DNA of 64,000 nucleotides from the IMG/VR virus record IMGVR_UViG_3300026256_000121, positions 1 through 64,000 of that record. One strand, 5' to 3'. The stretch comes from a virus. Below the pieces are notes generated by a model. It worked only from the letters and a program-made list of their open reading frames with translations. It had not been told where the DNA came from and did no database searches. The position numbers were made by a program, and so were the translations under genes. Below, one piece after another: positions 22,773-50,903 of this stretch. Numbering within the stretch: position 1 is the stretch's first letter; each line of letters begins with the position of its first letter.

Positions 22773-22777
22773 GTACT

Positions 22778-24242: not shown

Positions 24243-24244
24243 TG

Positions 24245-24938: not shown

Positions 24939-24947
24939 TTATAATCC

Positions 24948-27481: not shown

Positions 27482-27483
27482 GC

Positions 27484-27705: not shown

Positions 27706-27722
27706 AATGTGTTCTCCTTCAT

Positions 27723-28139: not shown

Positions 28140-28168
28140 AGTATACTACCTTTTTGTTTCTGTGTCAA
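28140..28168 (-). promoter_or_regulatory. Sigma70-type promoter
   Basis: TTGACA-N17-TATACT. Confidence 0.8.
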
Positions 28169-28697: not shown

Positions 28698-28990
28698 TAT
28701 CTTCCCATTTCAGGATCTTCTTGTACTTGATGATCTACAGAAGTAATCTTTTTAAAGTCGGGTTTTTCTGCACAACCAATATGCGTCAATTCAACTTTCC
28801 AGTCTTTTCTAAGCATATTTTGTACAGCATCTAATCCACGTGACCTAATAGTTTCCTCCCAATCAAGAACAAATTCAGTACATTCGGGTTTTGAATCGAA
28901 GTGTCGTGAAAGAACATTCACAATTTCATCTCGTTGTGTACCATCTGGTTCAGTTAGTGTGAATGCTAAGAGTAGCATAAATGTCTTCAT
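28697..28990 (-). CDS. Hypothetical protein
   Basis: 97 aa; AAGGA SD; own sigma70 promoter. Confidence 0.55.
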   Translation of the reverse strand: MKTFMLLLAFTLTEPDGTQRDEIVNVLSRHFDSKPECTEFVLDWEETIRSRGLDAVQNMLRKDWKVELTHIGCAEKPDFKKITSVDHQVQEDPEMGR

Positions 28991-29041
28991 TGTCTTGTCC
29001 TTTTGTTTGCCTAAGTGTTTTTATACCTTTACTATTCTATA

Positions 29042-29069
29042 ATTATAACAGAAAACAGCAATAAGTCAA
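29042..29069 (-). promoter_or_regulatory. Sigma70 promoter with extended -10
   Basis: TTGACT-N16-TATAAT with TG. Confidence 0.7.
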
Positions 29070-29072
29070 GCA

Positions 29073-29270
29073 TTATTTTTTCATGAATTTTGCCAATTTT
29101 TCTATTTGATCTTTGACCTTAAGTTTTAATTTTTTATGCCTTTTTATTAATTCTTTTGTTTGCCAACCTCTGTAGGCGTTTTCTTCACGTTCGTTTTCCA
29201 TTTGTTCTACTTTGTTATGTAGATAACGGTGTTCGTTCTCTAATCTCTTCTGTTCCTTGCTCTTGTTCAT
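29073..29270 (-). CDS. Small coiled-coil protein (DUF465-like), start revised
   Basis: L..EHRYLH.KV..KKLKLKVKDQI; GGAG SD. Confidence 0.6.
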   Translation of the reverse strand: MNKSKEQKRLENEHRYLHNKVEQMENEREENAYRGWQTKELIKRHKKLKLKVKDQIEKLAKFMKK

Positions 29271-30801
29271 TTTCAAGTTCCTCCAACTTGCTTTCTTGTA
29301 ACTCGGGTTCATTATCAGAATCATCTTCAGTACTGTTAATGTCATCACCTTCATAAAAAAGATTCTTATAAAATGTACTTGAGTTAATAGTCTTTTTACC
29401 CGTTGCACCTCTAGTACCAATAATAGATAACCAAAATCGATTATATTCTTCTATTACTGCATTTGCTTCATCTTTGTTACTAGTTGCAAATATTGCCTCA
29501 ACGACATCTTTGAAATAAGTCCTATCAAATTTTTCTTCAACTAACATTTTAGGAATTACACCATTGTCATATTGTCTATTTGCTTCTTGTACAGCATTAA
29601 TATGATGCCAAACGTTATGCCCCATTTGAATTGCATAACTAAATGAATCCCAACTAGTTTTTCCTTCTTTACCTATCTTATTTAGGTCCCCGGGCTTATA
29701 ATAACATATATCTGAAACTTTTAATCCGTCCGTTATAGGAGAATCTTCAAAGTTTTTAAATATACCATCTTGTAATACTGCATCTTTAAATAAACGAGAA
29801 TCTGTAGCATATTTCTTATCATCAACACTCGGCACCATTCGATACACCCATTTAGATCTATCTTCTGTTTCTGTTTGAATATAAACTTGTCCATTTGCAG
29901 TTGCTAAGAAAGGACTTGCACAATCAAATGTAACTGTAAAGTTTGGATTATGATATTTACGAACTGCTCGTTGTACGTCAGTTAGTAAGGCCGCCCATTC
30001 AAGTTTAGATGTACCTAAGAAGTGCATGAAGTCATGTTTACCTGTTTCTAATAGTCCATCAAAACGTAATGCTACAAGTCTTTTTAATACTAGGTGTATG
30101 TCACACATATTTTGACCACCCATCGACCAACCTTTAAAATGATCGCTATATTTTTTAGGATCACAATAGTCTTTCATTTGCTGATACCAATCTTCTGCAT
30201 CAGCATGGTTTTCGCCTTGTAAAACATTTAAGAATTTACAATTACCATTTTGTTCTTTCATAAAGTAATCGTTATTAATGCGTGTAGCATTAACGGCATC
30301 TTGATAATTGTCAATTCCTGTTGCTTTTGCTCCTGCTGGAGAACGTGATACCCAAGCTGGAATATCTAAAATCATTCCATAGTCCATATACTCATCCATC
30401 CAAGCAAGAACTTGTTCACGTTTCTTTTTAGCTTTAGGACAGTTAGGATCTTTCCAATCGCCTTCCCAAACACCTTTACCAATTTGGAAACCACCTGAGT
30501 CACCAAGTAGCCAACTATTATCACGATCCCTATTACGAATCATATCTTCTTTAGGTGAATGTTTGTTTATATCTAATTCGGCATGACCTGCACTATATAA
30601 ACTCCAATGATAGTTGAATAAACCCTTTTGTGGATTTAACCAATTCATACTCTCTACATCATTTGGAAAGTTAGAAGGGATTCTAGTTTTATCAACATAC
30701 TCCCCGTGGCGTTGTTTTCCTATATAGGTTGCGAAAAAGCCACTTAATGCTGGAAGAAAAACTGCATAATCTTTTTGTGCTTTTGTTAGATCTTTGTTCA
30801 T
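29215..30801 (-). CDS. Large TGT/DpdA-like base-exchange transglycosylase
   Basis: DSGGFQ, MILDIP, VLQG, SMGG, HFLG, TFDCASP, GHN; no CxCxxC Zn motif seen. Confidence 0.8.
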   Translation of the reverse strand: MNKDLTKAQKDYAVFLPALSGFFATYIGKQRHGEYVDKTRIPSNFPNDVESMNWLNPQKGLFNYHWSLYSAGHAELDINKHSPKEDMIRNRDRDNSWLLGDSGGFQIGKGVWEGDWKDPNCPKAKKKREQVLAWMDEYMDYGMILDIPAWVSRSPAGAKATGIDNYQDAVNATRINNDYFMKEQNGNCKFLNVLQGENHADAEDWYQQMKDYCDPKKYSDHFKGWSMGGQNMCDIHLVLKRLVALRFDGLLETGKHDFMHFLGTSKLEWAALLTDVQRAVRKYHNPNFTVTFDCASPFLATANGQVYIQTETEDRSKWVYRMVPSVDDKKYATDSRLFKDAVLQDGIFKNFEDSPITDGLKVSDICYYKPGDLNKIGKEGKTSWDSFSYAIQMGHNVWHHINAVQEANRQYDNGVIPKMLVEEKFDRTYFKDVVEAIFATSNKDEANAVIEEYNRFWLSIIGTRGATGKKTINSSTFYKNLFYEGDDINSTEDDSDNEPELQESKLEELENEQEQGTEEIRERTPLST

Positions 30802-36847: not shown

Positions 36848-36876
36848 ATTATACTTGTTTTCTTGTCTAATGTCAA
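36848..36876 (-). promoter_or_regulatory. Sigma70-type promoter
   Basis: TTGACA-N17-TATAAT. Confidence 0.85.
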
Positions 36877-37445
36877 GTGTTTTCTGCAATTTTTTTTGGA
36901 TTAGCTTTCTCTAATTTATATGCAATATTTCCAGCTATACAAATTCTATTATGATCGCATTCGTGTTTTGGTACAGAATGTGATATTGGTCCAGGAAAAA
37001 TTATAACTAATCCTGTATTTGGTTTGATGGCTTTTCCTGCTCCTGGAAATACCAATGGAGCACATTTTGGACAAGCATCAACATAATATACGAAACCCCA
37101 TTGTGCTGGCCAATGAGCATGAGGGTTAGTATAGTCGCCTGTTTTATAATTAACACCCCAGCAATCAACACAATAAAGTTTTGTTGTGTCTTTTGGTGCA
37201 GACGGTGTGTCGCTTAGTTTTAAAGTTTCAATTACCCAATCAATTATAGGAATAAAGTCTTTATTTGAAAACATGTCCCACGATGTCATGTTCGCTTGAA
37301 CATTTGTTCTTCTGTACTGTTTATCGCCTTCTTGTTTAATAAGTTGGGTGAGATGTTCTTTCACTTCTGTTGCTTTTGAGTATACATTAGTATACACATC
37401 AAATTGTTCAGTAAATGATAGTTGTTCTATTCTAAAATCTTGCAT
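36873..37445 (-). CDS. 2OG-Fe(II) oxygenase (TIGR02466-like)
   Basis: W..Y..GD..PHAH..VYYV..IFP..HSV..RICIAGN. Confidence 0.8.
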   Translation of the reverse strand: MQDFRIEQLSFTEQFDVYTNVYSKATEVKEHLTQLIKQEGDKQYRRTNVQANMTSWDMFSNKDFIPIIDWVIETLKLSDTPSAPKDTTKLYCVDCWGVNYKTGDYTNPHAHWPAQWGFVYYVDACPKCAPLVFPGAGKAIKPNTGLVIIFPGPISHSVPKHECDHNRICIAGNIAYKLEKANPKKIAENT

Positions 37446-37490: not shown

Positions 37491-38255
37491 TTATTGCCCG
37501 GCGTTAGCTTGTTTCATTAATAGTTTAAATTTAGAAAATAATTGAGGATCTTGCATCATCTTTTGAATGCTTTGTGTATAAGGTGCTATTGCTTTTATTA
37601 AATTAGGAGGTAATGTACTTCCTGAGGCAACTTTATCCATTCCTTTAGCAACCATACCGCCACTTGCTGAACCGCCAGCTACACTTTTTAGTGCTGTGGC
37701 TCTTTGTGCAACTTTTTGTGTTGCTTTTTGGTCTGGTTTTCCTGCTGGTTGTCCTGGTGGAATTTCTTGTGCTGGTGTTTGTGCTTGTTGTTGTTTAAAA
37801 CCTTGTGCCGCCTGTTGTGCTACACCTTTAACTTTATCAACACCTTGTCCAACTGCCGCGCCTGCCTGTTGTGCAATTGCTCCAACTCCGCCTGCGGCGT
37901 CAACAGCTTGTCCAACGGCTTTGGCTCCTTGAGCAATTCCACGTCCAGCCGCTTTGGCTCCTTGACCAGCCGCCTTAGCTCCTGCTTTAGCTCCTTTAAC
38001 AGCTAACTTACCAGCCGCCTTAGCTCCTGCTTTAGCTCCTTTAACAGCTAACTTGCCTCCAGCCTTTGCCGCTTTGGCTCCTACTTTACCAACACCTTTT
38101 GCTACTGCTCCTGCACCCTTCGCCGCCATTCTTCCTATGCCAGCAAGTGCAGGTAATATTTCATTTATTTCTTCGTCAGACATACCTTCAGTAATATAAC
38201 CATACTTCTTCCCAAAATTGATTAGAGCATCTCTTTCAAATTGATGAAATCTCAT
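37491..38255 (-). CDS. Ala/Gly/Lys-rich putative capsid-internal protein
   Basis: MRFHQFE N-terminus; low-complexity amphipathic repeats. Confidence 0.6.
   Translation of the reverse strand: MRFHQFERDALINFGKKYGYITEGMSDEEINEILPALAGIGRMAAKGAGAVAKGVGKVGAKAAKAGGKLAVKGAKAGAKAAGKLAVKGAKAGAKAAGQGAKAAGRGIAQGAKAVGQAVDAAGGVGAIAQQAGAAVGQGVDKVKGVAQQAAQGFKQQQAQTPAQEIPPGQPAGKPDQKATQKVAQRATALKSVAGGSASGGMVAKGMDKVASGSTLPPNLIKAIAPYTQSIQKMMQDPQLFSKFKLLMKQANAGQ
37965..38054. repeat. Perfect 45-bp tandem duplication (x2) within the CDS
   Basis: accagccgccttagctcctgctttagctcctttaacagctaactt twice; encodes KLAVKGAKAGAKAAG. Confidence 0.95.
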
Positions 38256-38366
38256 TTACTTTTTCCAGAATTTAAATTTAGTAAGAAGTTCTTGCAAGTC
38301 TTCAAATTTTTCGTTTATATACCAACCTGCTACGAATCCTATAATAAAGCCAATTGTTAAAAACAT
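38256..38366 (-). CDS. 36-aa single-TM peptide (not in track)
   Basis: MFLTIGFIIGFVAGWYINEK..FWKK; GGAGG SD; fills the gap exactly. Confidence 0.65.
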   Translation of the reverse strand: MFLTIGFIIGFVAGWYINEKFEDLQELLTKFKFWKK

Positions 38367-38657
38367 CTAGCCCTCCAGCTTTTTAAGTTGTTTTTGTAAT
38401 ATTAGTATTTGTTTTTTTAATAATGCGTTTTGTTTTTCTAAATCAACTTCTTTTGTCTTATCATCTTTAGGCTCTGCGGCTTTGCCAGTCCAGCCTGCTT
38501 TTGTTGGTCCTGCTATATCAGTACCAGTAGCTGGTTCTACAGTCATATCTCTTCCAGAGGCTTTACCGAGGCCTTTATTAAATTTATCAAACCCAGCTCC
38601 TGCACCTTTTTTAAAAGCGTCCCAGCCCGGTCCTTCAATAAGATCTCTAATTTTCAT
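38367..38657 (-). CDS. Putative capsid-internal protein
   Basis: MKIRDLIE N-terminus. Confidence 0.55.
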   Translation of the reverse strand: MKIRDLIEGPGWDAFKKGAGAGFDKFNKGLGKASGRDMTVEPATGTDIAGPTKAGWTGKAAEPKDDKTKEVDLEKQNALLKKQILILQKQLKKLEG

Positions 38658-39603
38658 TTTTTTTCGCTTCTAATTTAGTTTGTAGTTGGTCTTTATATGT
38701 TTCGTTTTTAACCCTATCTACATAGTGAGAACTCATCTTACCATAACCGTGTCTCCACGCCATTTGTTTTAGAGTTTTTTCATCTTTACCTTTAAAATGA
38801 CTTGCTAATTCTTTGTCAGACATGTCAGCGTATTTCTGTTTGTTCTTAATAACGCTTGTTGGCATTCCACCTTCGTTAGTTCTTTTTAAAACTTTTTGTA
38901 CATCTGGATGGCTTGATAACCCTTTTGCAAGTTTTTCAATAGCCTTAACTGCACCTGAATAGTTACCTTGTTTGTATCTAGGGTCATTTGCAATTCCGTA
39001 TGCTTGTTTGATTTGTTGTGAAGTAAACTTAGTTTCTTCTTTAACTTTTTTCTTTTTATGAGTTTTACCACAACTTTCACAGATTTCTTTACCACAGCTA
39101 CAATTACATGTAGACTCTGATACTTCGTCAAATTTTGTTTGGTAATCTAAATGATGGAAAACAGTACCAAGATAGTCAGATGCTTTAGTAATTTTAGCTG
39201 ATACCCAACCGTCTAATCCTTCTGCTTCACTCATACCTTTAAGCATGTCATGAAGTTTAATAGAATATTTTGCGGCTTTATATAACTCGCCTCTAGCGAG
39301 TTGGATTTCATGATCTTGCTCAACTTTATGAGCTAAGTCACCTAAGTTTTCTTGAACTTCTTCTTTATCTTCTACTGGTTTTAATGTTTCTTTAACTACA
39401 TCAAAACTAGTTGGTACTTTACCTGTCATTCTCTTTAAAATTCCACGGCCAACTTCTTTTGGATCCTTACCTGCTGGTACATTAACTATAATAGAGTTAG
39501 GCACCTCACCACCAGTATTTGGTGGCATTTTAATATTTTTTATTCTAACAACCATATCCTCTTCTAATTCAACTTCTTGTTTTATAATTTCTTTTTCTCG
39601 CAT
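38647..39603 (-). CDS. Modular putative capsid-internal polyprotein (start revised)
   Basis: Late motif GCTAAATA at 39620-39627; modules bounded by x-x-E; shares a module with 39623..41935. Confidence 0.6.
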   Translation of the reverse strand: MREKEIIKQEVELEEDMVVRIKNIKMPPNTGGEVPNSIIVNVPAGKDPKEVGRGILKRMTGKVPTSFDVVKETLKPVEDKEEVQENLGDLAHKVEQDHEIQLARGELYKAAKYSIKLHDMLKGMSEAEGLDGWVSAKITKASDYLGTVFHHLDYQTKFDEVSESTCNCSCGKEICESCGKTHKKKKVKEETKFTSQQIKQAYGIANDPRYKQGNYSGAVKAIEKLAKGLSSHPDVQKVLKRTNEGGMPTSVIKNKQKYADMSDKELASHFKGKDEKTLKQMAWRHGYGKMSSHYVDRVKNETYKDQLQTKLEAKKNEN

Positions 39604-39622
39604 AGTATTATCCTTACTGTAT

Positions 39623-41935
39623 TTAGCGTTTAACTGCGCCGCCACCCATTAAATTATTACTCATGTCTAATGCATTTACGGCTGTACCATCAGCCTTCTT
39701 TTTTTGTGGTGCCTTAGGAGCTCCAAATTTACCTTTTTTTGCAGGTTTATGTTTAGCAATTACAGGATTAGCCACAGTTGCGATATTGCCTGCACTTGTT
39801 GATCCAGCTGTAGCTGTTTCGCCTATTTCTTTCATACCATCATATATTTGTGATTCATAATTTTCAGCGTTTTCTTTATCATAATTAACTTTCCACGTTG
39901 CTAATTCTCTATATCTACGTCTTACTTCATCAGCAAGTTCCGGATCGCTTTTCATATAGCGTTCTAAACTATAAAGAGTTTTCATTTTTTCTCTATAGTC
40001 TTCTAAATCTGTAACGCCAAATTTTTCTTCAGACATAAATGCTTCCTTTTTATCTTTTGATAATGTTTTTGCTTCTTCTTCATCATCGTCATCATATTCA
40101 CGTCCTGGAACATTTGTTAGATCACGTGCGGCAGTACCAAATTCTTTTTCATCATCATCTGTCCAGTCGTCATCTTCTGGATCTCTATTACTAGGATGAT
40201 CTGGCCAATTCATTTCATCATTTGATGGATCAATACGTCCCCAATATTGGTGTTCGCTTGAGTAGTCTTTAGTTGAATCATAAAATTCGTGGTCTTGAAC
40301 TCTATCACTATTTTTGCCATCTAGCCATTTATCAAATGCTTCGTCATAATTTTTTGCAGGTACTTTATAGATGTGCATTTCTGTTGGTGTATCAGTAATC
40401 ATATGCGTACCTTCTGCATCGGCATCATAATCATCTGGATCTAACCAGTTACGTCCGATCGGATTTGATTTGTGCCACATTGATGAATATGCTTTATGCG
40501 ATTTTGAATCAAGATCTTCGTTTGCTCTTTTTAATGCGTTAGCAACGTCTGGATGTTTTGATAATCCTTTTTTAAGTTTTTCAATAGTATTTGATGCTCC
40601 AGTGTAATTGCCATCTTTATATCTTTTATCAAAAGCAATACCTTTTGCTTGTTTAATTTCTTTATCAGTTGGTTTTTCTTTATCTTCTTTAATTGCATTA
40701 CAATCACAATGAGGACAATCTGGTGGACAATGACATTCGCTAACTGGCACACCACAACAGGCTTCAGGACACATTTTTTCTTTTGCTTCACCTATATCCC
40801 ATGGATGTTTCCAATCACGTCTTTTAGTAGCTTTACCTAATGCATCTGTAGGATGTTCAAGATCTAGTTCATCGCGGTTCATATACTTTGTGTCACCGTT
40901 TTGAAATTCTACTTTATATACTCCAGCTTTAGGATCAGCTTGTATTATTTTTACTCTACGTCCTTTAATTGTTCTTACAACTGTTCCAACTCGATCGTCA
41001 ATAAATTCTTTAATGCTTTCGCCGTTTGATCTTGTTTTATATACGTTATGTATTTTGTCAATTGCGTCTGGCCAACCGTCTACAATAACTCTTGCCATGC
41101 TTTCAGCTTTGAACTTATCTCCATCTAATACGTGTTGAGCCATTTCTAACCCATAGCCTAAATGAGCTTGGGCGACTCCTAAAAGTCTTGCTGGAGCATT
41201 TTCATCACTTTCGTCTTGTATATCTTCTTGTGGTTGTGCTTCGGGGTCGTCTTCATCTTGTATATAGTCATAAAGTTTTTTACCACCGTATAAGATTGCA
41301 ATAATTGCCGTTGCCGGTAACGCCCATTTTACTGCCACTTGTGCAAGTGCTTTGATAGTTTCATTATCAAGCATATCACCTACAAGTTCTTTGATGTGAT
41401 CAAATAATTCATCTACTTCAGTATAAATTTTTGCACCTACGCCTAATATTGTAGCTTTAATAGGATGTTTAAGAATTTGTTTTCCTACGCCTTTTGCTAC
41501 ACTTCCAGCACCTTTGGCAATCTTTGGTGCTACTTTTATTGCACCTTTACCTGCCGCTTCTGCACCTTTTTGAATAAGTGGTTTGGCATTTTTTGCTATA
41601 TTAGCCGCCGCACCTGCTCCGCTCTGAGCTCCTTTTTTAATTATTTCTTTTGCACCCTTTTTTCCAAGGAATCTAAGCACATGAGGAGCACCTATTCTAA
41701 CAGCGGTTGCTAATGCTGGTATTAATAATGGTAAGAAAGCAAGTTCAGTTAAGTGCTGAACATCTTCATTTGTGAATTCGTCTTTGTATTTTGCTTTGCG
41801 TGGAATTTCTTTAGTTTTATCACCATGAGATCCAGCGGCACCACTCTTTTTAAGATCTTGCATTTGTTTCCAGTTAGGATCGCGGGGTTTTACTACTCTG
41901 CCATCCTTGTATTTTTTAAGCTCGTTAAATCTCAT
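39623..41935 (-). CDS. Modular putative capsid-internal polyprotein, 770 aa
   Basis: MRFNEL; amphipathic, Cys-rich and acidic modules; late motif at 41954-41961. Confidence 0.6.
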   Translation of the reverse strand: MRFNELKKYKDGRVVKPRDPNWKQMQDLKKSGAAGSHGDKTKEIPRKAKYKDEFTNEDVQHLTELAFLPLLIPALATAVRIGAPHVLRFLGKKGAKEIIKKGAQSGAGAAANIAKNAKPLIQKGAEAAGKGAIKVAPKIAKGAGSVAKGVGKQILKHPIKATILGVGAKIYTEVDELFDHIKELVGDMLDNETIKALAQVAVKWALPATAIIAILYGGKKLYDYIQDEDDPEAQPQEDIQDESDENAPARLLGVAQAHLGYGLEMAQHVLDGDKFKAESMARVIVDGWPDAIDKIHNVYKTRSNGESIKEFIDDRVGTVVRTIKGRRVKIIQADPKAGVYKVEFQNGDTKYMNRDELDLEHPTDALGKATKRRDWKHPWDIGEAKEKMCPEACCGVPVSECHCPPDCPHCDCNAIKEDKEKPTDKEIKQAKGIAFDKRYKDGNYTGASNTIEKLKKGLSKHPDVANALKRANEDLDSKSHKAYSSMWHKSNPIGRNWLDPDDYDADAEGTHMITDTPTEMHIYKVPAKNYDEAFDKWLDGKNSDRVQDHEFYDSTKDYSSEHQYWGRIDPSNDEMNWPDHPSNRDPEDDDWTDDDEKEFGTAARDLTNVPGREYDDDDEEEAKTLSKDKKEAFMSEEKFGVTDLEDYREKMKTLYSLERYMKSDPELADEVRRRYRELATWKVNYDKENAENYESQIYDGMKEIGETATAGSTSAGNIATVANPVIAKHKPAKKGKFGAPKAPQKKKADGTAVNALDMSNNLMGGGAVKR

Positions 41936-41956
41936 AGTTTTTCCTAGCTTTAGTAT

Positions 41957-43447
41957 TTATGCTTTTGCTAGTTTCGTAGCTGTAGCATACATAACTGCTT
42001 TAGCGTCATCACCATAGCGTTTTGCGAAGCCTTTTTTGTCTTTTTTCATACCTTTAACAATACGTTCTTTGTCTTTTTCTTGACCTTTTGTAAGCTCACG
42101 CTCTGTAGCTGGATTTCGTCCTTTTCTAGCCAACTGTCTTGGAGAATTATCTATATCATGTATAGTATAATTTTTACCGTCCCAATCAACATCCTGTCCT
42201 GACAGGAGTTCGTAAATTTTCTTTAGTAATTTTGGGTCGTATTCTGATTTGCCATATCCTTTTTGTGGCTGTCTAACTTTATCAGCAACAAAGTCTTTAA
42301 AATCGCTGTATTTCATTTTTAAATCACCTTCAATAATAGTAGATTCTTTAAAATGTTGTTGTAAGTTTTTAGCAGTTCTTTCAAACTTATGGTCTTTATG
42401 TTTAAAGCCCACTCCACCAGCACCTTCCCATTTAGCAACATTTTGCCCAAAGTCATCAATTAAGATGTTTGGTGTTCCATCTTTTTGTACAGCATATTGT
42501 TTTTTATTAGTTGTAATAATAACATCATCGGGTGGAAATGCTTTTAAATTCTTTTGCACCCATTCTCTTTTACTAGGCTCAACTCTATGATCGTCTGCCA
42601 TCGGTGCAGAAAGAATTATGTAACTTCCTTTAATTTGTTTAATAATGCCTAATAGATTATCGGCATTAGATGTTGGTTTTAGTTTAGTCCAAAAGTCTGG
42701 AGTATTTCTAATTTTATCAAGTCCTACATTTACATTCGAAATGTCTTTCCAAGTTTTAACTCCCATTAATTTAGTCCAAGCACTAAAGAAATCTACAAGT
42801 ACTCCATCCATGTCTACATAAATTTTGCTGTTACTTGATAAACCTTTAGCTTCTTTTTCTTGTAGGTTATCTGGAACATCAAATTGCCATACTTTACCCT
42901 TACCAGTTGTTCTTATTGCCGCGGTAAGTCTTGTATTACCACCTACAAGCTCTAACCATCCATCACTATAACTTGCAACAATAGGTAATTCAATTTTACC
43001 TGTTTGTAATTGTTGTACTACTCTTTTTTTCCGTACAGGATCTATTTTATCCCAATCTTTTACGTTACCAGCTTCAGTATTTTTAATCTTTTTAACTGTT
43101 TCAGCATCATAGTCTACTACTTTACCTTTTTTAGCAAGAGCAATCCATTTATCTTTACCTATATTTTTAAATTCCTTGTAACGTTTTGCTTCGCCCCATT
43201 CATTATCAAAGTTAGGGTCAGTATATGCAATAGAGTTTTTTGATTCTGACATTCCTAAATTAAAAAGTGTATTAGGGTTAGTATTTTTGTATGCTTTATC
43301 GTGCATAAAGTAGCCAGGACGGCCATCTTTGTCAACTTTGTTTCCGAATTTAGCGGCTTGTTTTTTAATTTCGTCAGGGCCTACGTCAGATGTTTGATTC
43401 TGCTTTGTAATTCTGCCGACACCTTCGTATAACTGACGTAATTTCAT
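41957..43447 (-). CDS. Modular protein with ParB/Srx-like and NT5C-type HAD nucleotidase domains
   Basis: MKLRQLYE; LPIV..LVGGNTRL; IYVDMDGVLVDF..ILIDD..W..AGG. Confidence 0.7.
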   Translation of the reverse strand: MKLRQLYEGVGRITKQNQTSDVGPDEIKKQAAKFGNKVDKDGRPGYFMHDKAYKNTNPNTLFNLGMSESKNSIAYTDPNFDNEWGEAKRYKEFKNIGKDKWIALAKKGKVVDYDAETVKKIKNTEAGNVKDWDKIDPVRKKRVVQQLQTGKIELPIVASYSDGWLELVGGNTRLTAAIRTTGKGKVWQFDVPDNLQEKEAKGLSSNSKIYVDMDGVLVDFFSAWTKLMGVKTWKDISNVNVGLDKIRNTPDFWTKLKPTSNADNLLGIIKQIKGSYIILSAPMADDHRVEPSKREWVQKNLKAFPPDDVIITTNKKQYAVQKDGTPNILIDDFGQNVAKWEGAGGVGFKHKDHKFERTAKNLQQHFKESTIIEGDLKMKYSDFKDFVADKVRQPQKGYGKSEYDPKLLKKIYELLSGQDVDWDGKNYTIHDIDNSPRQLARKGRNPATERELTKGQEKDKERIVKGMKKDKKGFAKRYGDDAKAVMYATATKLAKA

Positions 43448-44049
43448 TATGCCGCCCAAACATGAGTTGCACCACGTTGTTTTCCAATACGTGCAATTTT
43501 ATTCATCATCATTATTACTTCATTAAAGTAACCTTCACGTTTGCCGCCACCAATCATTGTAGCACCGCCGCCACTTTTATCTACTGTAGTAGGTTCCTCT
43601 GCTGAACGTTTGCCTATATGTCGTTTTAACCATTGAGTAGTGAATGCAATGAACTCGTCTATAGGGACATTAGAGTCCGGATCTCCAAATCCAAGCTCGT
43701 CAAACACTTCACGCATATTTGAATTAGACAAATTTAAATCTAGTTCTGGATCGTAATCAGGATTTTCAGGTGGTTCTTCATCACCATACATATACTTGTC
43801 TGAATTTTTATAAAAGTCATCACCATAACGGCTTCCTGAATCAGTATCGCTAGTCCAGTAACCTTTTTCTTTGTCTTTATGACCTGCGGCAAAGCTCATA
43901 CTTTCATTAGCTTTATTATTGCCTTTGTTTTTAAAGTCAAATCTGTTATTTGGACCAATACCTTTTTTATGTATTAAACCTTGTGGCTTAATTGTTTGAG
44001 GCATTATTATCCATTCTTGTTTGTAACCTAAAACTTCAGTTATTTTCAT
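43447..44049 (-). CDS. Putative capsid-internal protein
   Basis: MKITEVL N-terminus; ANE module boundary. Confidence 0.55.
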   Translation of the reverse strand: MKITEVLGYKQEWIIMPQTIKPQGLIHKKGIGPNNRFDFKNKGNNKANESMSFAAGHKDKEKGYWTSDTDSGSRYGDDFYKNSDKYMYGDEEPPENPDYDPELDLNLSNSNMREVFDELGFGDPDSNVPIDEFIAFTTQWLKRHIGKRSAEEPTTVDKSGGGATMIGGGKREGYFNEVIMMMNKIARIGKQRGATHVWAA

Positions 44050-44264
44050 TTTTTACGCCCCCTAAATGGTACGTTACTTGCAACCATGAAAGGTCTACTA
44101 AACCAAAGTTTGAACCAATCTTCTGTACCTGGTTTAATACCTTGTTCTTTTTCTTTTTTCTTTAATGCCGCGGCAGTTATACTAGGATTCTCGTCTATTT
44201 TGTATTCAGAGTATCCTTGAAACTCGTTAACCCCTGCTAATTGTTTTAATCTTTCTATATCCAT
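44046..44264 (-). CDS. Small putative virion protein
   Basis: MDIERLKQLAGVNE; IKPGT..WFKLWF. Confidence 0.6.
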   Translation of the reverse strand: MDIERLKQLAGVNEFQGYSEYKIDENPSITAAALKKKEKEQGIKPGTEDWFKLWFSRPFMVASNVPFRGRKK

Positions 44265-44265
44265 T

Positions 44266-44433
44266 TTACTTTTTATCTATTCCACAATATTTACTTGCTT
44301 CGTCTACTTTGCCCATGCTAATTTTATGAAATGTTTTCATAATGTTTTTATGCTTTACGTTATTCGGACATGAACATTGCCATTGATACATCGCTTCGCA
44401 TTTTACACAATATCTAGACTTTAGTTTACTGAT
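44266..44433 (-). CDS. Putative Cys-rich small protein with a non-canonical (ATC) start (not in track)
   Basis: AAGGAG SD then ATC; YCVKC..WQCSCP; fills an otherwise empty gap. Confidence 0.45.
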   Translation of the reverse strand: MSKLKSRYCVKCEAMYQWQCSCPNNVKHKNIMKTFHKISMGKVDEASKYCGIDKK

Positions 44434-45442
44434 TAGAATCTCCTTCTATTCGGGTTACGTTACTTGCGTCAAAGATTAATAAACCTTCAACAGCTTTATC
44501 ACTAACTACTCCATCATATCCTGCTTCTTTTAAGTCCATTGTTAGTATTGCTGAGTACATTTTATCTCCAGTATACTCCCAAGGTTTAAGTCCCATTTTT
44601 GCTTTGATATCTGCTACTTCGTCGCTTTGATAATCAGCTATTTTTAACCCTGGCTTTACTTTATACTTAACAATCTCACCATCAGCACCATGATGTATTG
44701 AAAATGCATTCGCGGCAGACTCAGTCCATGTAAGATAAACTCCTCTACCTAATGCACCTAGTCCTAAACCTTTGCCCCCTTTACCTTCTCCTCGGTAAAA
44801 TACGCCGTCTTCTTTCTTATATAAATGTGGATAAAAATCTGCTTCTGATTCTATTACTTGTATAGCTTCGCCTTGTATTCCTAATCCAGCACGAACTTTA
44901 TTGTATAACATTTTTCCTACTTTAGGATCTTTGCTACAAACACCAGATCTAAATGATTCAATGTCTCCGTCAACTGCCGCTTGTTTCATTTTACTAGCAC
45001 TCATACCTTCAGCACCTTCGGCATCTGGATCTCGTTGTCCTGCACTTATAACATTTATGGAATTAAATTGATAATCATCGCCACCGTTGTATTTGTTTAG
45101 TAATGTATCAAAAGATTCTACACGATCGTCACCAGCTACGTAGATAAGATCAGTATATTTTCTACTGTAAAGAAATTTGCAACAATCAATAATAGTTCTA
45201 ACACTATCATGCCCGATAGTAATTCCATTGCCGAAACATTTACGAGCAAAAAAAACTTTTTCTGCAAATGATAAAGGATCTGTTTTAGGTTTTTGTGTAT
45301 GACTTAAAAATAGGAAAGGATCGCCTGGCTGACTTGTAATTACATCAACTAATTTAGCGTGTCCAATTGTAGGAGGATTCATTCGCCCGAAGGCAAATAC
45401 AGCCGTTTTCCCGTCAGCTTCAGTAAGTTGTCGTAAGAGCAT
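44426..45442 (-). CDS. HxGH nucleotidyltransferase fused to an ADP-ribosyltransferase-like domain
   Basis: FGRMNPPTIGH, AGDDR, MSASKM; C-terminal FYRG..GRGVYLT..A..F..GYDGV. Confidence 0.7.
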   Translation of the reverse strand: MLLRQLTEADGKTAVFAFGRMNPPTIGHAKLVDVITSQPGDPFLFLSHTQKPKTDPLSFAEKVFFARKCFGNGITIGHDSVRTIIDCCKFLYSRKYTDLIYVAGDDRVESFDTLLNKYNGGDDYQFNSINVISAGQRDPDAEGAEGMSASKMKQAAVDGDIESFRSGVCSKDPKVGKMLYNKVRAGLGIQGEAIQVIESEADFYPHLYKKEDGVFYRGEGKGGKGLGLGALGRGVYLTWTESAANAFSIHHGADGEIVKYKVKPGLKIADYQSDEVADIKAKMGLKPWEYTGDKMYSAILTMDLKEAGYDGVVSDKAVEGLLIFDASNVTRIEGDSNQ

Positions 45443-45786
45443 TAATAATCACCTTTTTCAATTAGCTCCATTTCTTCGCCATAGATTTTTTCAATTAACG
45501 CATCAATTTCTTCGCTTTGCATCAAATCCTCTGGACGTTTAGGAATACTATATTTTGCACAATAGTGATTAATACCTTTGTTTACCATAGGCAATATTGC
45601 CTTTTTTGTATCAATTGGATTGCCTTGTTTTAGACGATCTTGCATATTAGCAATAGTTGGATAATACTGTTTACGATAAAACATAGGGTCGTTCTTCATA
45701 TGGACATGAAGGTCACTTACAACATCAAACCCTAAGTTAGGTTTGCTTTCATCGTTATGATCATCTATAAATTCATTAATTTTCAT
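45442..45786 (-). CDS. Putative capsid-internal protein
   Basis: MKINEF N-terminus. Confidence 0.55.
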   Translation of the reverse strand: MKINEFIDDHNDESKPNLGFDVVSDLHVHMKNDPMFYRKQYYPTIANMQDRLKQGNPIDTKKAILPMVNKGINHYCAKYSIPKRPEDLMQSEEIDALIEKIYGEEMELIEKGDY

Positions 45787-45788
45787 AG

Positions 45789-45899
45789 TTATTCTTCTTC
45801 TTCTGTTCTAGTACAGCATTCGCAACGCATTGTTGCAGTACACTCACAGGGATCGCAAGTACATTTTTTGTCCTTGCATTGGTCATTATTACAAGCCAT
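45789..45899 (-). CDS. Metallothionein-like 36-aa Cys-rich peptide (not in track)
   Basis: MACNNDQCKDKKCTCDPCECTATMRCECCTRTEEEE; AGGAGG SD; late motif at 45923-45930. Confidence 0.7.
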   Translation of the reverse strand: MACNNDQCKDKKCTCDPCECTATMRCECCTRTEEEE

Positions 45900-45941
45900 G
45901 ATGAAACCTCCTATGTATAGAGTATTTATCAGACTTTAAGG

Positions 45942-46211
45942 CTAGACAGAAATTTCGATATCGAAGTGATTATAACCTAAATCAAATAGTTTATGAGCAA
46001 TACGCTCAGCTACTACAGTAGATTCAGAATCTTTGAGGTTTTTGTGTGTTTCTACAGTTAATATAACGCCACCTTGTTCAGTTTCACCTATTTCGTAATT
46101 TGTTTCATCTTCAAGTAATGCTTCGTCGGCACATTCGAGGATTGAATCAACTACAACCTCGTCTACATCTTCTGGTTTCTTTTCCCATACTATATTAATA
46201 AAGTGCTTCAT
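45942..46211 (-). CDS. Acidic hypothetical protein
   Basis: 89 aa. Confidence 0.6.
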   Translation of the reverse strand: MKHFINIVWEKKPEDVDEVVVDSILECADEALLEDETNYEIGETEQGGVILTVETHKNLKDSESTVVAERIAHKLFDLGYNHFDIEISV

Positions 46212-47252: not shown

Positions 47253-49499
47253 TCAATGGACGGTTGCTTTCACGTCCTTGGTATTAGTATTTAAGACAAA
47301 TTCTTCGTCTTTTACATCAATTGTTACAATTCCGCCTGCTTTTAATTCACCGAATAATAATAGTCTAGATAAAGGACGTTTAATGTCGTTATCAATAACA
47401 CGTTGTAAAGGTCTTGCACCCATTTTCTTATTAAACCCTTTATCTACTAATACATCAATAGCTTCGTCGGAAATAGTAATGTCAACATTTTTATCAGTTA
47501 ACATTTTCTTTAACTCTACTAAAAACTTACCAACTATTTTTATCATAGTATTTTTATCTAGTTTATCAAAAGTTATAACACCATCTAATCTATTTCTAAA
47601 TTCTGGCGGAAAAAATTTCTTAAGTTCAGTATCTTCAAATTCGCCTTCGTCATTTCCAAAGCCAATTAATGACCTTTCTGATTCTGCGGCTCCTAAGTTA
47701 GTTGTTAGAATTAAAACAATATTTCTACAATCAGCAGTTTTACCATTACTACCTGTTATAAATCCATTGTCCATTATTTGCAATAGTAACGAGCTAACAT
47801 CTGGATGTGATTTTTCAATTTCGTCTAGTAGTAAAACACAATTAGGAGTTTCCTGTAATGCAGTTATAAGCATTCCAGCATTTTCTTCAAATCCTACGTA
47901 TCCTGGAGGCGAACCAATTAGTTTAGAAACAGAGTGCTTCTCTTGATACTCTGACATGTCAAATCTAATAAGTTTTACACCAAGTTGTTTAGCAAGTTGT
48001 CTTGCAGTTTCTGTTTTACCTATGCCTGTTGGACCCATAAACACAAAAGAACCAATTGGTTTACGTTCTTCTTTAAGTCCTGCTTGTGCAACTAGTATTT
48101 TATCAACTACGTTTGTAATAGCATCATCTTGACCATAAATTTCACCTTTAAGGTTCTTTTCTAAATTAGCAAGATTACTAGTTTCTTTTTCCTTAATTTG
48201 TTCTTCAGGAAGATTAACCATTTTTGCTAATTCAAATTGAATTTCTTCTTCATTTATAACTCTATCTTCAGGATCGTTAAGGTTAAACCTAGAACAAGCA
48301 CAATCAAGTAAGTCAATAGCTTTATCAGGTAATTTTTTATCTGTTTGGTACTTAACACTTAATTTAATAGCCGCATCAACAGCCTCTTCTGTAATAGTAG
48401 TATTGTGAAATTCTTCATAGTATTTCTTAATGCCAAGTAAAATATCTTTTGCAACTTCTTTGCTAGGTTCATCGATTGTAACTCTAGCAAACCTACGCAT
48501 TAATGCTCTGTCATTTTCAAAATATTTACGGTATTCTTCCCATGTAGTAGATGCAACTACTTTAATATTGCCTTTAGTTAATATAGGTTTTAGCATATTT
48601 GCAAGATCGTTTGAACTACTACTACCTGCCGCACCTGCTCCGCTTATCATATGTGCTTCGTCGATAAACATAATAGTCTTTCCACGTTTCTTTAATGCAG
48701 ATATTACAAGTTTAAATCGTTCTTCAAAATCACCTCTATACTTACTACCAGCTAACATAGATCCTATGTCTAAGTTATAAACATTATACTCTTGTAGGAA
48801 CTTTGGACATTCTTTCTTGACAATTTTCCAAGCAAGTCCTTCTGCAATAGCAGTTTTACCTACACCAGGATCACCTACAAGTAAACAATTATTTTTAGTT
48901 CTACGTCCAAGGGCTAATGCAATAGTATCCAACTCATCACGTCTACCAACTACAGGATCAATTTTTCCTGAGTCAACTTCTTGATTTAAATTAGTAGTAA
49001 ATGAACGTAATGCCCTACTAGCCAGGCCTTGTGTTTCTTCATCTTCATATGTTGCTTCTAGTTCATTATTTAAATAATCTGAAAATTTAGTTTTGTCGAT
49101 ATTTGCTTTAGAAATATGAAAATATGCCCAAGTTTTTTGTTCATTCATCATACTAAGGAATACATCTGCTATTTCAATTAATTGACGTCCACTAAACAGT
49201 ACCTGAGTAAATGCTCTATTAAGAACACGTTCAACAGCGTGTGTTTTTTTAGGTTTGTATTTTTTACCTTGGACTTCAACAGTTTCAATTGATGTTAAAT
49301 TATTTTTTAGATAATGCTCAATATTCTTTTTAATTAGTTCATGATCAGTGCCAAATCCTTCTAAGATTTTTGAGAAACTTTCTTCACAAAGCATAGCAAA
49401 GAGTAAATGCTCTATAGTTACATACTCGTGTTTTAGCTTTTTCGAAACCTCAACAGCCTTATCAAAAACTAATTGTAATTTTTCGCTTGGTTCAACCAT
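47253..49499 (-). CDS. clpA: ClpA-type Hsp100 chaperone
   Basis: HEYVTIEHLL, GDPGVGKT, FIDEAH, LPDKAIDL, GPTGIGKT, FDMSEY, IGF ClpP-docking loop, PEFRNRLD. Confidence 0.95.
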   Translation of the reverse strand: MVEPSEKLQLVFDKAVEVSKKLKHEYVTIEHLLFAMLCEESFSKILEGFGTDHELIKKNIEHYLKNNLTSIETVEVQGKKYKPKKTHAVERVLNRAFTQVLFSGRQLIEIADVFLSMMNEQKTWAYFHISKANIDKTKFSDYLNNELEATYEDEETQGLASRALRSFTTNLNQEVDSGKIDPVVGRRDELDTIALALGRRTKNNCLLVGDPGVGKTAIAEGLAWKIVKKECPKFLQEYNVYNLDIGSMLAGSKYRGDFEERFKLVISALKKRGKTIMFIDEAHMISGAGAAGSSSSNDLANMLKPILTKGNIKVVASTTWEEYRKYFENDRALMRRFARVTIDEPSKEVAKDILLGIKKYYEEFHNTTITEEAVDAAIKLSVKYQTDKKLPDKAIDLLDCACSRFNLNDPEDRVINEEEIQFELAKMVNLPEEQIKEKETSNLANLEKNLKGEIYGQDDAITNVVDKILVAQAGLKEERKPIGSFVFMGPTGIGKTETARQLAKQLGVKLIRFDMSEYQEKHSVSKLIGSPPGYVGFEENAGMLITALQETPNCVLLLDEIEKSHPDVSSLLLQIMDNGFITGSNGKTADCRNIVLILTTNLGAAESERSLIGFGNDEGEFEDTELKKFFPPEFRNRLDGVITFDKLDKNTMIKIVGKFLVELKKMLTDKNVDITISDEAIDVLVDKGFNKKMGARPLQRVIDNDIKRPLSRLLLFGELKAGGIVTIDVKDEEFVLNTNTKDVKATVH

Positions 49500-50035
49500 T
49501 AAATGACCCTTCTTTTATGTAATTGATCGTATTTTTTTATATACTTGCTTCTTTTCTTTCTAGCCATTTCTAGTCTAAGTTTACTTACTCTATCAATAAA
49601 ATTAATTCCGTATAGGTGATCGTATTCATGCCCAAAGATTCTAGCATTCCAACCTGTTAACTCTATTGTACACTCTTTTCCTGCAATGTCAAGACAGTCT
49701 ACAACCAATCCGTATGGTCTTTTTACTTTTATATATAAAAAAGGAAAACTTAAACATCCTTCTTCGCCTATAAGTGTTTCTTGTGATACATGAGTAATTT
49801 TAGGATTAATTATAGCAAATCCTTTATTATCTTCATATCCTTTTAAGTCTGTAGGCTTTATAACAAATATTTGTGCATCAAGTTCTACTTGATTAGCCGA
49901 TAATCCAATACCTTGCTCTTTATCCATGATTTCTACCATTTCCTTTTCAATAGAAGGTGCATCATGTTCATCAAAATTAAAAGGCTTTACAGTTTTTTCT
50001 AACCAATCATTTGGTGCGTGAATTAATTTCATCAT
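49499..50035 (-). CDS. def: Peptide deformylase
   Basis: GIGLSANQV, EGCLS, HEYDHL.G. Confidence 0.95.
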   Translation of the reverse strand: MMKLIHAPNDWLEKTVKPFNFDEHDAPSIEKEMVEIMDKEQGIGLSANQVELDAQIFVIKPTDLKGYEDNKGFAIINPKITHVSQETLIGEEGCLSFPFLYIKVKRPYGLVVDCLDIAGKECTIELTGWNARIFGHEYDHLYGINFIDRVSKLRLEMARKKRSKYIKKYDQLHKRRVI

Positions 50036-50903
50036 TTATTTTTCTTATTTTTTCTCTTATTATTTCGTTATCAACTTTTGGTGTTACAGCATTAATTTTA
50101 ATAAAAAGTGCGCCGGTTTGCCCACTCCTGTGATCTGGCAATCCTTGTTCGTGTATACTAAAAGTTGTTCCTGCATTTGCTCCTGCTGGTACTGTTACAT
50201 TTAAAGTTTTACCATGAATAGTATCAATTGTTATATTAGTACCTAAGATAAGATCTAGTACACTAACATTTTTATTTACATATAAATTAATTCCATCTAC
50301 ATCATATATGGCATGTTTTCTTACACGTATTTTAACATGAAGATCCCCCGGTTGTCTACCTGGAGCATACTCATTTGCACCCATTCCGGGAAAATTTACT
50401 ATGTCACCGTTTCTAATACCTCGAGGTATATCAATATTAACTGTTTGTTCTGAACCGTTAGCTGTTCTAAATGTTGCAATTAAACTTTTACCATTTACAA
50501 TATCTTCTAACTCAAGATCTGCGGCTATTGTTATATTTTGATTTCGTTGATGTGCTCGTTGGCCAGGACCAAAGCCGTTTCCAAAAAATGGTTCACCTTG
50601 TCCAAAGAAAGAATTAAATATATCTTCTACATTTATATTTCCGTTAGGGCCTCTAGTATGAAAATGATATTCTTGCTGGCGAGGACGATGTTGATGTGGA
50701 TGTGGATCAGTACTACCAAATTGATCATACATCTGCTTTTTTTGAGGGTCTTTTAATGTATCGTATGCTTCGTTGATTTTTTTAAATTGTTCTTCTGACC
50801 CGCCACGATCGGGGTGATGAGTCATTGCTTTCTTTTTAAAAGCTTCTTTTAAATCACTTTTACTTGCGTTACGGTTAACACCTAGTATGTCGTAGAAATT
50901 CAT
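50007..50903 (-). CDS. DnaJ/CbpA-type co-chaperone lacking the Zn finger
   Basis: YDILGV..HHPDRGG..INEAY; GDLHV C-terminal domain. Confidence 0.92.
   Translation of the reverse strand: MNFYDILGVNRNASKSDLKEAFKKKAMTHHPDRGGSEEQFKKINEAYDTLKDPQKKQMYDQFGSTDPHPHQHRPRQQEYHFHTRGPNGNINVEDIFNSFFGQGEPFFGNGFGPGQRAHQRNQNITIAADLELEDIVNGKSLIATFRTANGSEQTVNIDIPRGIRNGDIVNFPGMGANEYAPGRQPGDLHVKIRVRKHAIYDVDGINLYVNKNVSVLDLILGTNITIDTIHGKTLNVTVPAGANAGTTFSIHEQGLPDHRSGQTGALFIKINAVTPKVDNEIIREKIRKINDEINSRTK

Follow-up and report, generated by a model that had tools for sequence, protein, structure and literature searches.

We analyzed a window comprising the first 64 kb of a 74,451-base linear IMG/VR viral contig (G000), in which nine adjacent minus-strand open reading frames (ORFs) form a block at positions 37491-45786. 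In our reading, to which we give a probability of roughly 65%, these genes are expressed late and belong to a jumbo phage of the T4 superfamily; their products would be capsid cargo, either internal or ejection proteins, and would be processed at a short N-terminal tag and at joints between modules. G000 has a GC content of about 34% and is approximately 21% complete by CheckV estimate. Its family-B DNA polymerase shares 43 to 51% identity with those of the jumbo myophages Sinorhizobium Phosso, Agrobacterium Atu_ph07, Vibrio 2.275.O, and the Asteriusvirus group; G000 is a fragment of an uncultured marine jumbo phage of the T4 superfamily. A megablast search of the block against 50,697 phage records returned no near-identical match.

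A preliminary description of this DNA had claimed nine co-oriented, tagged ORFs, and all nine are present on the minus strand. They are separated by small gaps or overlap slightly, and are given here in the order of transcription, W9 to W1, with lengths in amino acids (aa):

45442..45786, minus strand: W9, 114 aa, tag MKINEF
44426..45442, minus strand: W8, 338 aa, tag MLLRQLTE, nucleotidyltransferase followed by a predicted ART-PolyVal-type fold
44046..44264, minus strand: W7, 72 aa, 14-residue leader MDIERLKQLAGVNE, basic C terminus
43447..44049, minus strand: W6, 200 aa, tag MKITEV, 48-residue leader ending KANE, conserved body from SMSFAAG
41957..43447, minus strand: W5, 496 aa, five pieces, tag MKLRQLYE
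39623..41935, minus strand: W4, 770 aa, tag MRFNEL
38647..39603, minus strand: W3, 318 aa, tag MREKEII
38367..38657, minus strand: W2, 96 aa, tag MKIRDLIE, Gly/Lys-rich, coiled-coil-like C terminus; its start overlaps the end of W3
37491..38255, minus strand: W1, 254 aa, tag MRFHQFE, basic Ala/Lys/Gly repeat, net charge +23

Two of these starts had upstream GTG or TTG alternatives: W3 begins at the ATG at 39603 and W5 at the ATG at 43447, and the orthologues of both in related contigs start at the same Met.

A start of the form M-[KR]-hydrophobic-x-[EQD]-hydrophobic is common to the nine genes, and x-E often comes next. In the strict form ^M[KRLD][FIL].[EQD][FLIV], this motif occurred in 7 of the 9 block ORFs and in none of the 91 other ORFs of G000, which bears out the shared motif claimed earlier (Fisher p = 2e-9, a post hoc value since the expression was picked after the data were seen). 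With a leave-one-out position matrix, five of the nine block genes outscored every other ORF (Mann-Whitney p = 4e-6). The tags are 6 to 14 residues long. L-x-E falls at positions 6 to 8 in W2, W5, and W8, W1 has QFE, and W7 has V-N-E at position 14; W3, W4, W6, and W9 fit less cleanly. The codons used for the shared residues vary from gene to gene (CGA, CGT, or AGA; CTT or TTA). Therefore, the tag is conserved as a peptide and not as DNA, and an origin at the DNA level, as a repeat or regulatory cassette, was ruled out. Beyond the tag, the block proteins are rich in Lys, Ala, and Gly. An all-against-all BLASTP comparison revealed a single similarity within the block, a 52-aa module common to W3 and W4; otherwise only the tag is shared and the mature parts are unrelated.

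Similar N termini are found on the head proteins of T4. In the T4 record, ipII and ipIII begin MKTYQEFIAE, ipI begins MKTFKEFTS..ITE, and the starts of gp24, gp22, gp21, and gp67 read MAKINELLRE, MLKEQLIAE, MNEPQLLIE, and MEGLIE, respectively. In T4, propeptides of 10 to 20 residues direct their proteins into the core of the prohead and gp21 cuts them off, and this tag is all that the T-even internal proteins have in common (PMC9026906, PMC3012670, PMC5694885). Phages carrying homologues of the block proteins provide intermediate forms. In cyanophage S-CAM9, small ORFs beside a cytidylyltransferase gene start with MKTFKQFQDLIE and MKTFRQFVNDITE; in Methylophilales phage Melnitz, a 650-aa cytidylyltransferase starts with MKKFSEIIE and another protein with MKKFSELTSELIE; and gp140 of cyanophage S-SZBM1, also a cytidylyltransferase, starts with MRFRQFIIE. 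Judged by these N termini, the block tags grade into the T4 capsid-targeting sequence through the cyanophage and Melnitz homologues.

Some of these homologues have been detected in virions. Liquid chromatography-mass spectrometry of S-SZBM1 virions purified on cesium chloride (CsCl) detected both the tagged gp140 and its neighbor gp139 (PMC9146016). In S-CREM2, the virions contained ORF154, a cytidylyltransferase by annotation, and the authors suggested that it is encapsidated (PMC10665884). These detections support packaging of the family; they bear on packaging and not on cleavage.

We then compared the block with its relatives. Relatives of W4 are present at eight IMG/VR loci, including a close one (L002, approximately 77% identity) and a distant one (L009), which lies on a 267,783-base contig (G001). 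Both L002 and L009 keep the gene order of the block between a ClpA/B-like ATPase and the polymerase. The tag is retained in them while the protein bodies change, with body identity down to about 50 to 60%; examples are MKIKDLEE, MRIRQITE, MLLRELFE, MRWHEISE, MLIRELFQKDLEE, and MKVEDLVE. The W9 orthologues begin MKITEFADLD in L009 and MKIKDLEE in L002; the L002 orthologue also has an insert of 22 aa, with LEE at its boundaries. W7 is 66 to 74% identical in the two relatives and keeps its leader. Lengths vary among orthologues, from 338 to 404 or 646 aa for W8 and from 496 to 296 aa for W5.

The longer contig of the distant relative also carries the head machinery. G001 encodes a Peptidase_S77 protease of the T4 gp21 type (92 bits), adjoining the major head protein (phrog_138) and the portal (phrog_213), as well as a gp55-like late sigma factor. 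Between the portal and the protease, at the position occupied in T4 by the core-protein genes 67 and 68, there is an 81-aa tagged ORF, MILRELFYFDKETLEPVE (MILRELF). A few kilobases from the head genes lie two more tagged genes, MKLNEVITSK.. (718 aa) and MKINQIVTETTVSE.. (171 aa, Ala/Lys/Gly-rich), and a second small tagged cluster (MKTFADYLTE and MKLEDIYKK) is located near the tail genes. The gp21-type protease and the tags within the head cluster of this relative support a T4-like capsid-cargo reading of the block.

The preliminary description had further claimed that the proteins are mosaics of modules bounded by x-x-E sites (LEE, VQE, VSE, TNE, IKE, IGE, ANE, LQE, and IIE). All of these sites are present, and many fall exactly at module junctions when the proteins are compared with relatives. 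The modules and pieces that the following analysis uses, apart from the tags, are these:

~44858-45418, minus strand: HxGH nucleotidyltransferase of W8, followed by the linker QVIE-SE
44429-44848, minus strand: predicted ART-PolyVal-type ADP-ribosyltransferase (ART) fold of W8, residues 199-338
W5 residues 1-68: tag and N-terminal piece
42857-43243, minus strand: putative ParB/Srx-fold module of W5, residues 69-197
W5 residues 198-373: NT5C 5'(3')-deoxyribonucleotidase
W5 residues 374-455: inserted module, opening with the internal tag-like MKYSDFKDFVAD
W5 residues 456-496: C-terminal module
~40517-40666, minus strand: W4 copy of the 52-aa W3/W4 module
39626-39820, minus strand: C-terminal module of W4, after EIGE
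38872-39027, minus strand: W3 copy of the 52-aa module, ending KRTNE

BLASTP comparison of the block proteins of the window, L002, L009, S-CAM9, Melnitz, and S-SZBM1 revealed modules that had been gained, lost, or moved, and the exchange at Glu sites agrees with the mosaic structure proposed earlier. At the seams, the conserved module begins right after a Glu, and the sequence upstream is unrelated. For example, W6 reads ..KANE|SMSFAAG and its L002 orthologue, which has an unrelated 15-residue leader, reads ..GIIE|SMSFAAG. At the C-terminal module, W4 reads ..EIGE|TATAG, and in L009 a free 76-aa protein reads ..DLEE|TATAG. A helical module is preceded by Glu in all three loci (W3 ..VQE|NLGDLAHK, L002 ..VKE|DLADLAHK, L009 ..LKE|GLADMAYK). 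In W5, the junctions read MSE|, LQE| (before NT5C), IIE| (before the inserted module), and ERE| (before the last module); the L009 orthologue is without the ParB-like module and the 374-455 module. The C-terminal module of W5 stands free in S-CAM9 behind MKTFKQFQDLIE (..DLIE|); the joint reads ERE|L in W5 and LIE|K in S-CAM9. In W8, ..VIE-SE| precedes the ART-like module.

To quantify this pattern, we took every alignment end at which the architectures differ and asked whether [LIVM]-x-E lay between positions -4 and +2 of it. The motif was found at 36 of 122 ends, compared to 14 +/- 3.5 at random (maximum of 26 in 2000 trials), although one junction is counted through several overlapping pairs and the p-value is thereby inflated. 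Mere abundance of Glu sites in the block was discarded as an explanation: relative to the rest of the genome, the block was enriched neither in Glu (6.6% versus 6.4%) nor in N-E (4.9 versus 3.5 per 1000 residues) nor in [LIVM]-x-E. The signal is the placement of the Glu sites, not their number. Together with the virion-detected homologues, the junctions after [LIVM]-x-E support the T4-like capsid-cargo reading.

Three families of modules extend this observation beyond the block. The 52-aa W3/W4 module has 600 homologues, some of them in proteins with two copies; across 76 distinct contexts, EETI[VLM]E stands before most copies, and the module closes with LKR[TA]NE, beyond which the sequences are unrelated. 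(PF19141 [DUF5824], which is found on many of these homologues, is a co-occurring domain that is absent from G000.) The ART-like module, with 95 cluster representatives, occurs within proteins of up to 4112 aa and as proteins of approximately 150 aa. In the latter, T4-like leaders (MKTFKQFITE, MKTFKQHLQE, and MKNFKEYYLAE) stand directly before the module. Similarly, the ParB-like module is found free-standing behind short leaders ending in LLTE|, LIFE|, or LINE|. These are three independent sets of modules in agreement.

One joint resembles the maturation site of a capsid protein. The G001 capsid protein (L020 2211-3380) reads ..RKWLNE|TATAGSTSAGNVATL, with TATAGSTSAGNVAT directly after the site, and this ..WLNE| stretch aligns to T4 gp23 just downstream of the FLTE|AEIGG maturation site. 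The C-terminal module of W4 starts ..EIGE|TATAGSTSAGNIATV, and its first ~16 residues match the G001 capsid protein after WLNE|. In G001 itself, the 76-aa tagged protein reads MLIRELFQKDLEE|TATAG.., with a body opening TATAGGTSAGAIATV. From these matches, we infer that the capsid's predicted maturation site and first ~16 mature residues have been copied onto a cargo module. Docking on the shell and capsid-like handling by the protease are possibilities for the role of this look-alike.

We next considered what the modules resemble. The N-terminal half of W8 matches PHROG cytidyltransferase families (E = 2.5e-49) and, weakly, CTP_transf_like. A PDB sequence search with the nucleotidyltransferase domain returned nothing, and its substrate (nicotinamide mononucleotide, CTP, or other) is not assignable. 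This domain has 6390 homologues. Nearly all of the top 120, which range from 187 to 588 aa, start with M-x-[LI]-R-[EQH]-[LI]-x-E, and the first beta strand follows this motif within a few residues. Two close homologues of W8, P0008 and P0078, were found on contigs (164 kb and 372 kb) whose NCBI records assign them to 'Euryarchaeota archaeon' metagenome-assembled genomes. Given the T4-type content, these contigs may be jumbo-phage contigs that were binned with archaea.

The C-terminal module of W8 has a predicted ADP-ribosyltransferase fold. PF18760 (ART-PolyVal) was matched by 8 of 29 aligned homologues of this module (best E = 1.5e-5), and the ESM look-alike clusters of the module carry the same family. 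The structural model (predicted local distance difference test [pLDDT], 93.5) was compared with solved structures by Foldseek and VIA-align. The first match was a chain of the cyanophage A4 pre-ejectosome (E = 1.3e-3, Z 8.1, 121 residues, root-mean-square deviation 3.8, 17% identity), and the further matches were all of the ART fold: MbcT (Z 7.0), followed by PARPs, ParT, RES, and Tpt1 (Z 5-6). The conserved motifs are F-Y-R-G, G-x-G-x-Y-[LV]-[TS], and G-Y-D-G-V. PDB entry 9k3a, the A4 pre-ejectosome, is a capsid-internal assembly of ejection proteins (PMC12002296), and this match supports the capsid-cargo reading.

In W5, NT5C (PF06941) scored 34.5 bits versus a curated cut-off of 24.8, and phrog_2643 matched at E = 1.2e-23. 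The ParB/Srx-like module was modeled at a pLDDT of 88; its Foldseek matches were all to ParB-N, Srx, Noc, Osa, or SbnI, and were weak (E 1e-2 to 1e-1, template modeling score 0.35-0.42). G-G-N-T-R-L-T is invariant. Virion-delivered polyvalent proteins are characterized by domains of the ART-PolyVal and ParB-like kinds (PMC5512222). Pfam gave no match at E <= 1 to the isolated ART-like, ParB-like, or W5 374-455 modules, and a search of NCBIfam with five block proteins gave nothing credible. The inserted module of W5 contains the tag-like MKYSDFKDFVAD at 42278-42316 (W5 residues 378-390), four residues after the TIIE| joint; this is one of the modules missing from the L009 orthologue. The internal tag looks like the relic of a once free-standing tagged gene, the alternative being an internal start. 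A tag-retaining fusion as the general origin of the joints was rejected, as a proteome-wide scan found one internal tag, the one at W5 position 378.

The remaining proteins are of a different character. W4 has hydrophobic helices at residues 65-83 and 196-214 around an Ala/Lys/Gly-rich stretch, acidic linkers, and a Cys-rich knot at residues 388-413. W3 comprises an insert of ~70 aa bounded by LEE| and VQE|, the helical module from NLGDLAHK, a Cys-rich knot, and the 52-aa module. The C terminus of W1 is common to a 294-aa protein of L009 that starts with MKVEDLVE, and gp139 of S-SZBM1 carries an Ala/Lys/Gly repeat similar to those of W1 and W4. In the putative cargo, candidate enzymes aimed at the host or at DNA occur together with pieces that are basic and Ala/Lys/Gly-rich, Cys-rich, or membrane-like. 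Two further small ORFs lie at the head of the block:

45789..45899, minus strand: Cys-rich micro-ORF, 36 aa with 9 Cys and an acidic tail, heading the block; AGGAGG precedes its start
45942..46211, minus strand: possible tenth member, 89 aa, MKHFINIVWE, with T4-like spacing (F4, I7, V8, E10); low confidence

Orthologues of the 89-aa ORF start with MKHFISIVWE in L002 and MEHFVRIVME in L009. The micro-ORF has a 34-aa orthologue in L002 with the same Cys pattern, a promoter-like motif, and a Shine-Dalgarno sequence. Cys-rich knots like that of the micro-ORF are present inside W3 and W4, in tagged G001 proteins, and in gp192 of S-SZBM1. The latter and gp191 (L012 27312-28126) are encoded in the region from terminase to the neck genes; gp191 starts with MKSFKSFLSE and the Cys-rich gp192 with MKTFKQYITE, which are T4-like tags.

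Late-type promoters had also been claimed upstream of the block genes. The T4 late promoter TATAAATA, which is used with the gp55 sigma factor, is absent from the block, and only the shorter ATAAATA class is informative. This class was found at two sites:

45923..45930, minus strand: GATAAATA, late-promoter-like motif, followed by AGGAGG and the micro-ORF start; same arrangement in L002
41954..41961, minus strand: CATAAATA, late-promoter-like motif, 19 nucleotides (nt) before the W4 start

The claim therefore holds for the micro-ORF and for W4, in the ATAAATA form, and not for the block at large. In G000, ATAAATA, usually after G, C, or A, occurs 20 times; in 14 of these cases a start on the same strand follows within 61 nt (p = 1e-15), and the copies so placed mostly precede tail and structural genes. 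In G001, 39 of 54 copies are placed upstream of starts, and in both contigs the distance from motif to start is 6 to 61 nt. The motif looks like the T4/cyanophage-type late promoter of this lineage, and its presence suggests that the block would be expressed late.

According to our model, the 6- to 14-residue tag would act like the T4 capsid-targeting sequence, so that the protein behind it enters the prohead's scaffolding core. A prohead protease of the T4 gp21 type, whose gene was seen in the relative only, would then remove the tag after hydrophobic-x-Glu. With less certainty, the same protease probably also cuts the [LIVM]-x-E or x-N-E joints and frees the pieces inside the head. By analogy with T4 IPI, Alt, and the ejection proteins of podophages, the pieces would exit with the DNA at infection. 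As judged from the genes, we regard tagging and packaging as the best-founded part and consider them likely; on internal cleavage at the joints our opinion is evenly divided. Delivery into the host and effector roles are suggested by analogy. The preliminary description had proposed capsid-cargo polyproteins that are cut into many small effectors. The first half stands as the best explanation of a T4-like tag combined with modules at prohead-protease-type Glu sites. 'Many small effectors' overreaches because several of the products are two-domain enzymes, and others are basic or membrane-like and may be structural or DNA-binding.

Several points weigh against this reading. The nine proteins are known here from genes alone. 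Neither head genes nor a prohead protease were found in G000, and the PF03420 and PF07068 profiles had no match in it; as G000 is a fragment of ~21% of the genome, the link to the head comes through relatives. The block is flanked by replication and chaperone genes and not by head genes. The starts MREKEII (W3) and MKITEV (W6) score poorly in the leave-one-out analysis, and [LIVM]-x-E is no denser in the block than elsewhere (13.9 versus 15.7 per 1000 residues). The tagged gp191 and gp192 are not among the published 30 virion proteins of S-SZBM1 (PMC9146016); agreement between tag and virion list is partial in this phage, in which gp140 and the protease were detected and these two were not. 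Finally, T4 Alt is trimmed at its ends only, and multi-domain cargo need not be cut internally (PMC9026906).

The processing of Alt at its termini only (PMC9026906) leads to the strongest alternative, in which the proteins are tagged and packaged but remain whole except for removal of the tag, as cargo like T4 Alt or the polyvalent proteins, and the Glu joints are linkers or recombination seams. The internal cuts are predicted from sequence, the density of [LIVM]-x-E is not raised, and the junction statistic is built from non-independent events, all of which would fit whole cargo. However, a module has the same first residue whether it stands free behind the Glu of a tag or is fused behind an internal x-x-E, the EETI[VLM]E cassette accompanies its module through 76 contexts, the E|TATAG.. 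start recurs at the capsid protein's predicted maturation site, and W5 has a relic tag at the start of an internal module. On balance, we regard whole cargo as a serious but minority option. Tagged proteins could instead belong to the prohead core or scaffold and be degraded and expelled at maturation, like T4 gp22, gp67, and gp68. T4 core proteins do have similar N termini, the block has Ala/Lys/Gly-rich and acidic stretches, and the tagged 81-aa protein of G001 sits at the position of T4 genes 67 and 68. Nevertheless, nucleotidyltransferase, ART, NT5C, and putative ParB/Srx folds are improbable scaffolds, a homologous cytidylyltransferase is found in mature virions, and among solved structures the ART module is closest to an ejection protein, which makes a scaffold role unlikely.

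The genes directly upstream raise another alternative. A ClpA/B-like two-ring AAA+ ATPase (748 aa), a peptide deformylase, and a DnaJ-like protein are encoded at 47253-50903. Their synteny with the block is kept in L002 and L009 and is absent beside the cyanophage clusters. Handling of the tagged proteins by the Clp and DnaJ neighbors is possible. If the tag were a handle unrelated to the capsid, recognized by the phage unfoldase and DnaJ or by a membrane or secretion route, the proteins would act inside the infected cell, and this conserved neighborhood would be accounted for. This seems very improbable to us, since the tagged clusters of the cyanophages and Melnitz have no adjoining Clp or DnaJ, the tag matches T4 propeptides and ends in a protease motif, and it is found on proteins of the head cluster and on homologues detected in virions. 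Least probable of all, and already disfavored, is that the likeness of the tags arose by chance or composition on ordinary non-structural genes. M-K starts are common in a genome of 34% GC, and AT-richness favors M-K-I/L-x-E; yet none of the 91 other ORFs fit the motif compared to 7 of 9 adjacent ones, the tag is conserved where the bodies are ~50-60% identical and across thousands of nucleotidyltransferase homologues, and it recurs on unrelated modules in other phages.

Other neighbors of the block were recorded as side observations. Just downstream (36873-37445) is a single 2-oxoglutarate-Fe(II) oxygenase-like gene; at the same position in L002 (14768-16514), L003, and L004, there are three tandem ORFs of similar size that look like paralogues. 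On the same strand, at 21004-30801, the window encodes QueE-like and other deazaguanine-pathway-like proteins.

If the capsid-cargo reading is correct, the capsid-targeting and gp21 logic of T4 would be a widespread means of modular protein delivery by abundant ocean phages rather than a T-even curiosity. Its breadth would follow from the 6390 homologues of one module and the 600 of another. Dozens of genes now called "hypothetical" or "auxiliary metabolic", such as the cyanophage "cytidylyltransferase", would become candidate first-strike proteins, and a simple sequence rule would predict virion cargo and mature N termini from metagenomes. The natural tags and joints would also suggest ways of filling phage heads with foreign proteins. 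Cultured cyanophages and public virion proteome data offer a direct test of the idea. More speculatively, and with somewhat more doubt than belief, we propose a plug-in cargo system common to marine phages of the T4 superfamily (Kyanoviridae, Melnitz-like phages, and uncultured jumbo lineages). In such a system, modules with [LIVM]-x-E cassettes would be loaded behind one tag, freed by the protease, and delivered with the DNA. The joints would serve to reshuffle a library of ARTs linked to nicotinamide adenine dinucleotide (NAD), nucleotidyltransferases, nucleotidases, ParB-like nucleases, and small basic or Cys-rich peptides, and one module would carry a copy of the maturation site and N-arm of the capsid protein (E|TATAGSTSAGN[IV]AT), perhaps for docking or protease handling.

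The block is most readily compared with the T4 internal proteins IPI, IPII, IPIII, and Alt (Mullaney and Black 1996; PMC9026906, PMC3012670). Both have a short propeptide with hydrophobic residues three apart and a hydrophobic-x-Glu end, which is all that otherwise unrelated proteins share; both lineages have a gp21-family protease, the loci are variable, and the cargo includes an enzyme of the ADP-ribosyltransferase fold as well as basic proteins. Unlike in T4, nine or more genes form one operon-like block beside replication genes, and the proteins consist of several modules with protease-type sites at internal joints. The block tag, known here from genes alone, is one to two residues shorter than that of T4 and differs in sequence. 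Moreover, the predicted ART fold of W8 is of the ART-PolyVal type and not of the R-S-E type of Alt.

A second likeness is to the polyvalent proteins (Iyer, Burroughs, Anand, de Souza, Aravind 2017; PMC5512222), in which conflict-type domains (ART-PolyVal, ParB-like, nucleotidyltransferases, and nucleotidases) are mixed and matched within a single polypeptide. They are associated with late or virion genes, and delivery along with the DNA has been predicted for them. Such combinations are present in W8 (nucleotidyltransferase and ART fold) and in W5 (a putative ParB/Srx fold, NT5C, and two small modules), and homologues of the W8 and W5 modules occur in many architectures of up to 4112 aa. As signs of a late context, the block has ATAAATA at two sites, yet its neighbors are replication and chaperone genes. 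No built-in peptidase, zincin MPTase or other, was found in the nine proteins (Pfam at E <= 0.1, PHROGs at E <= 0.01). In contrast to the polyvalent proteins, processing here would be in trans, by the prohead protease at short joints; loading would depend on a T4-type N-terminal tag instead of MuF or virion RNA polymerase-type modules; and the proteins are smaller (72 to 770 aa).

The ejection and inner-body proteins of phiKZ, 201phi2-1, and SPN3US also belong to a giant phage lineage and are cut after Glu by a T4-related protease, the sites of the block being predicted ones. In the phiKZ-like phages, a head-internal protein can have multiple cut sites, and paralogues have common N termini (PMC5694885, PMC7411985). 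Their propeptides are mostly longer than 100 residues, with the motif A/S/G-x-E, and the families are others; the tags of the block are 6 to 14 residues long (one leader, 48), with mostly L, I, V, or M at P3. No PHROG or Pfam link and no sequence homology between the block and the phiKZ inner-body families was found. In podophage A4, the pre-ejectosome (PDB 9k3a; PMC12002296) provides the best solved structural match of the C-terminal module of W8, but A4 is a podovirus whose giant ejection proteins are stacked on the portal, without a T4-type tag or protease processing. We found no description of a tagged, joint-processed cargo array of this kind in the searchable literature. Relative to the T4 internal proteins with their capsid-targeting sequence and to the polyvalent proteins, what is new here is the proposed processing in trans at short joints, the operon-like array, and the wide spread in abundant marine phages.

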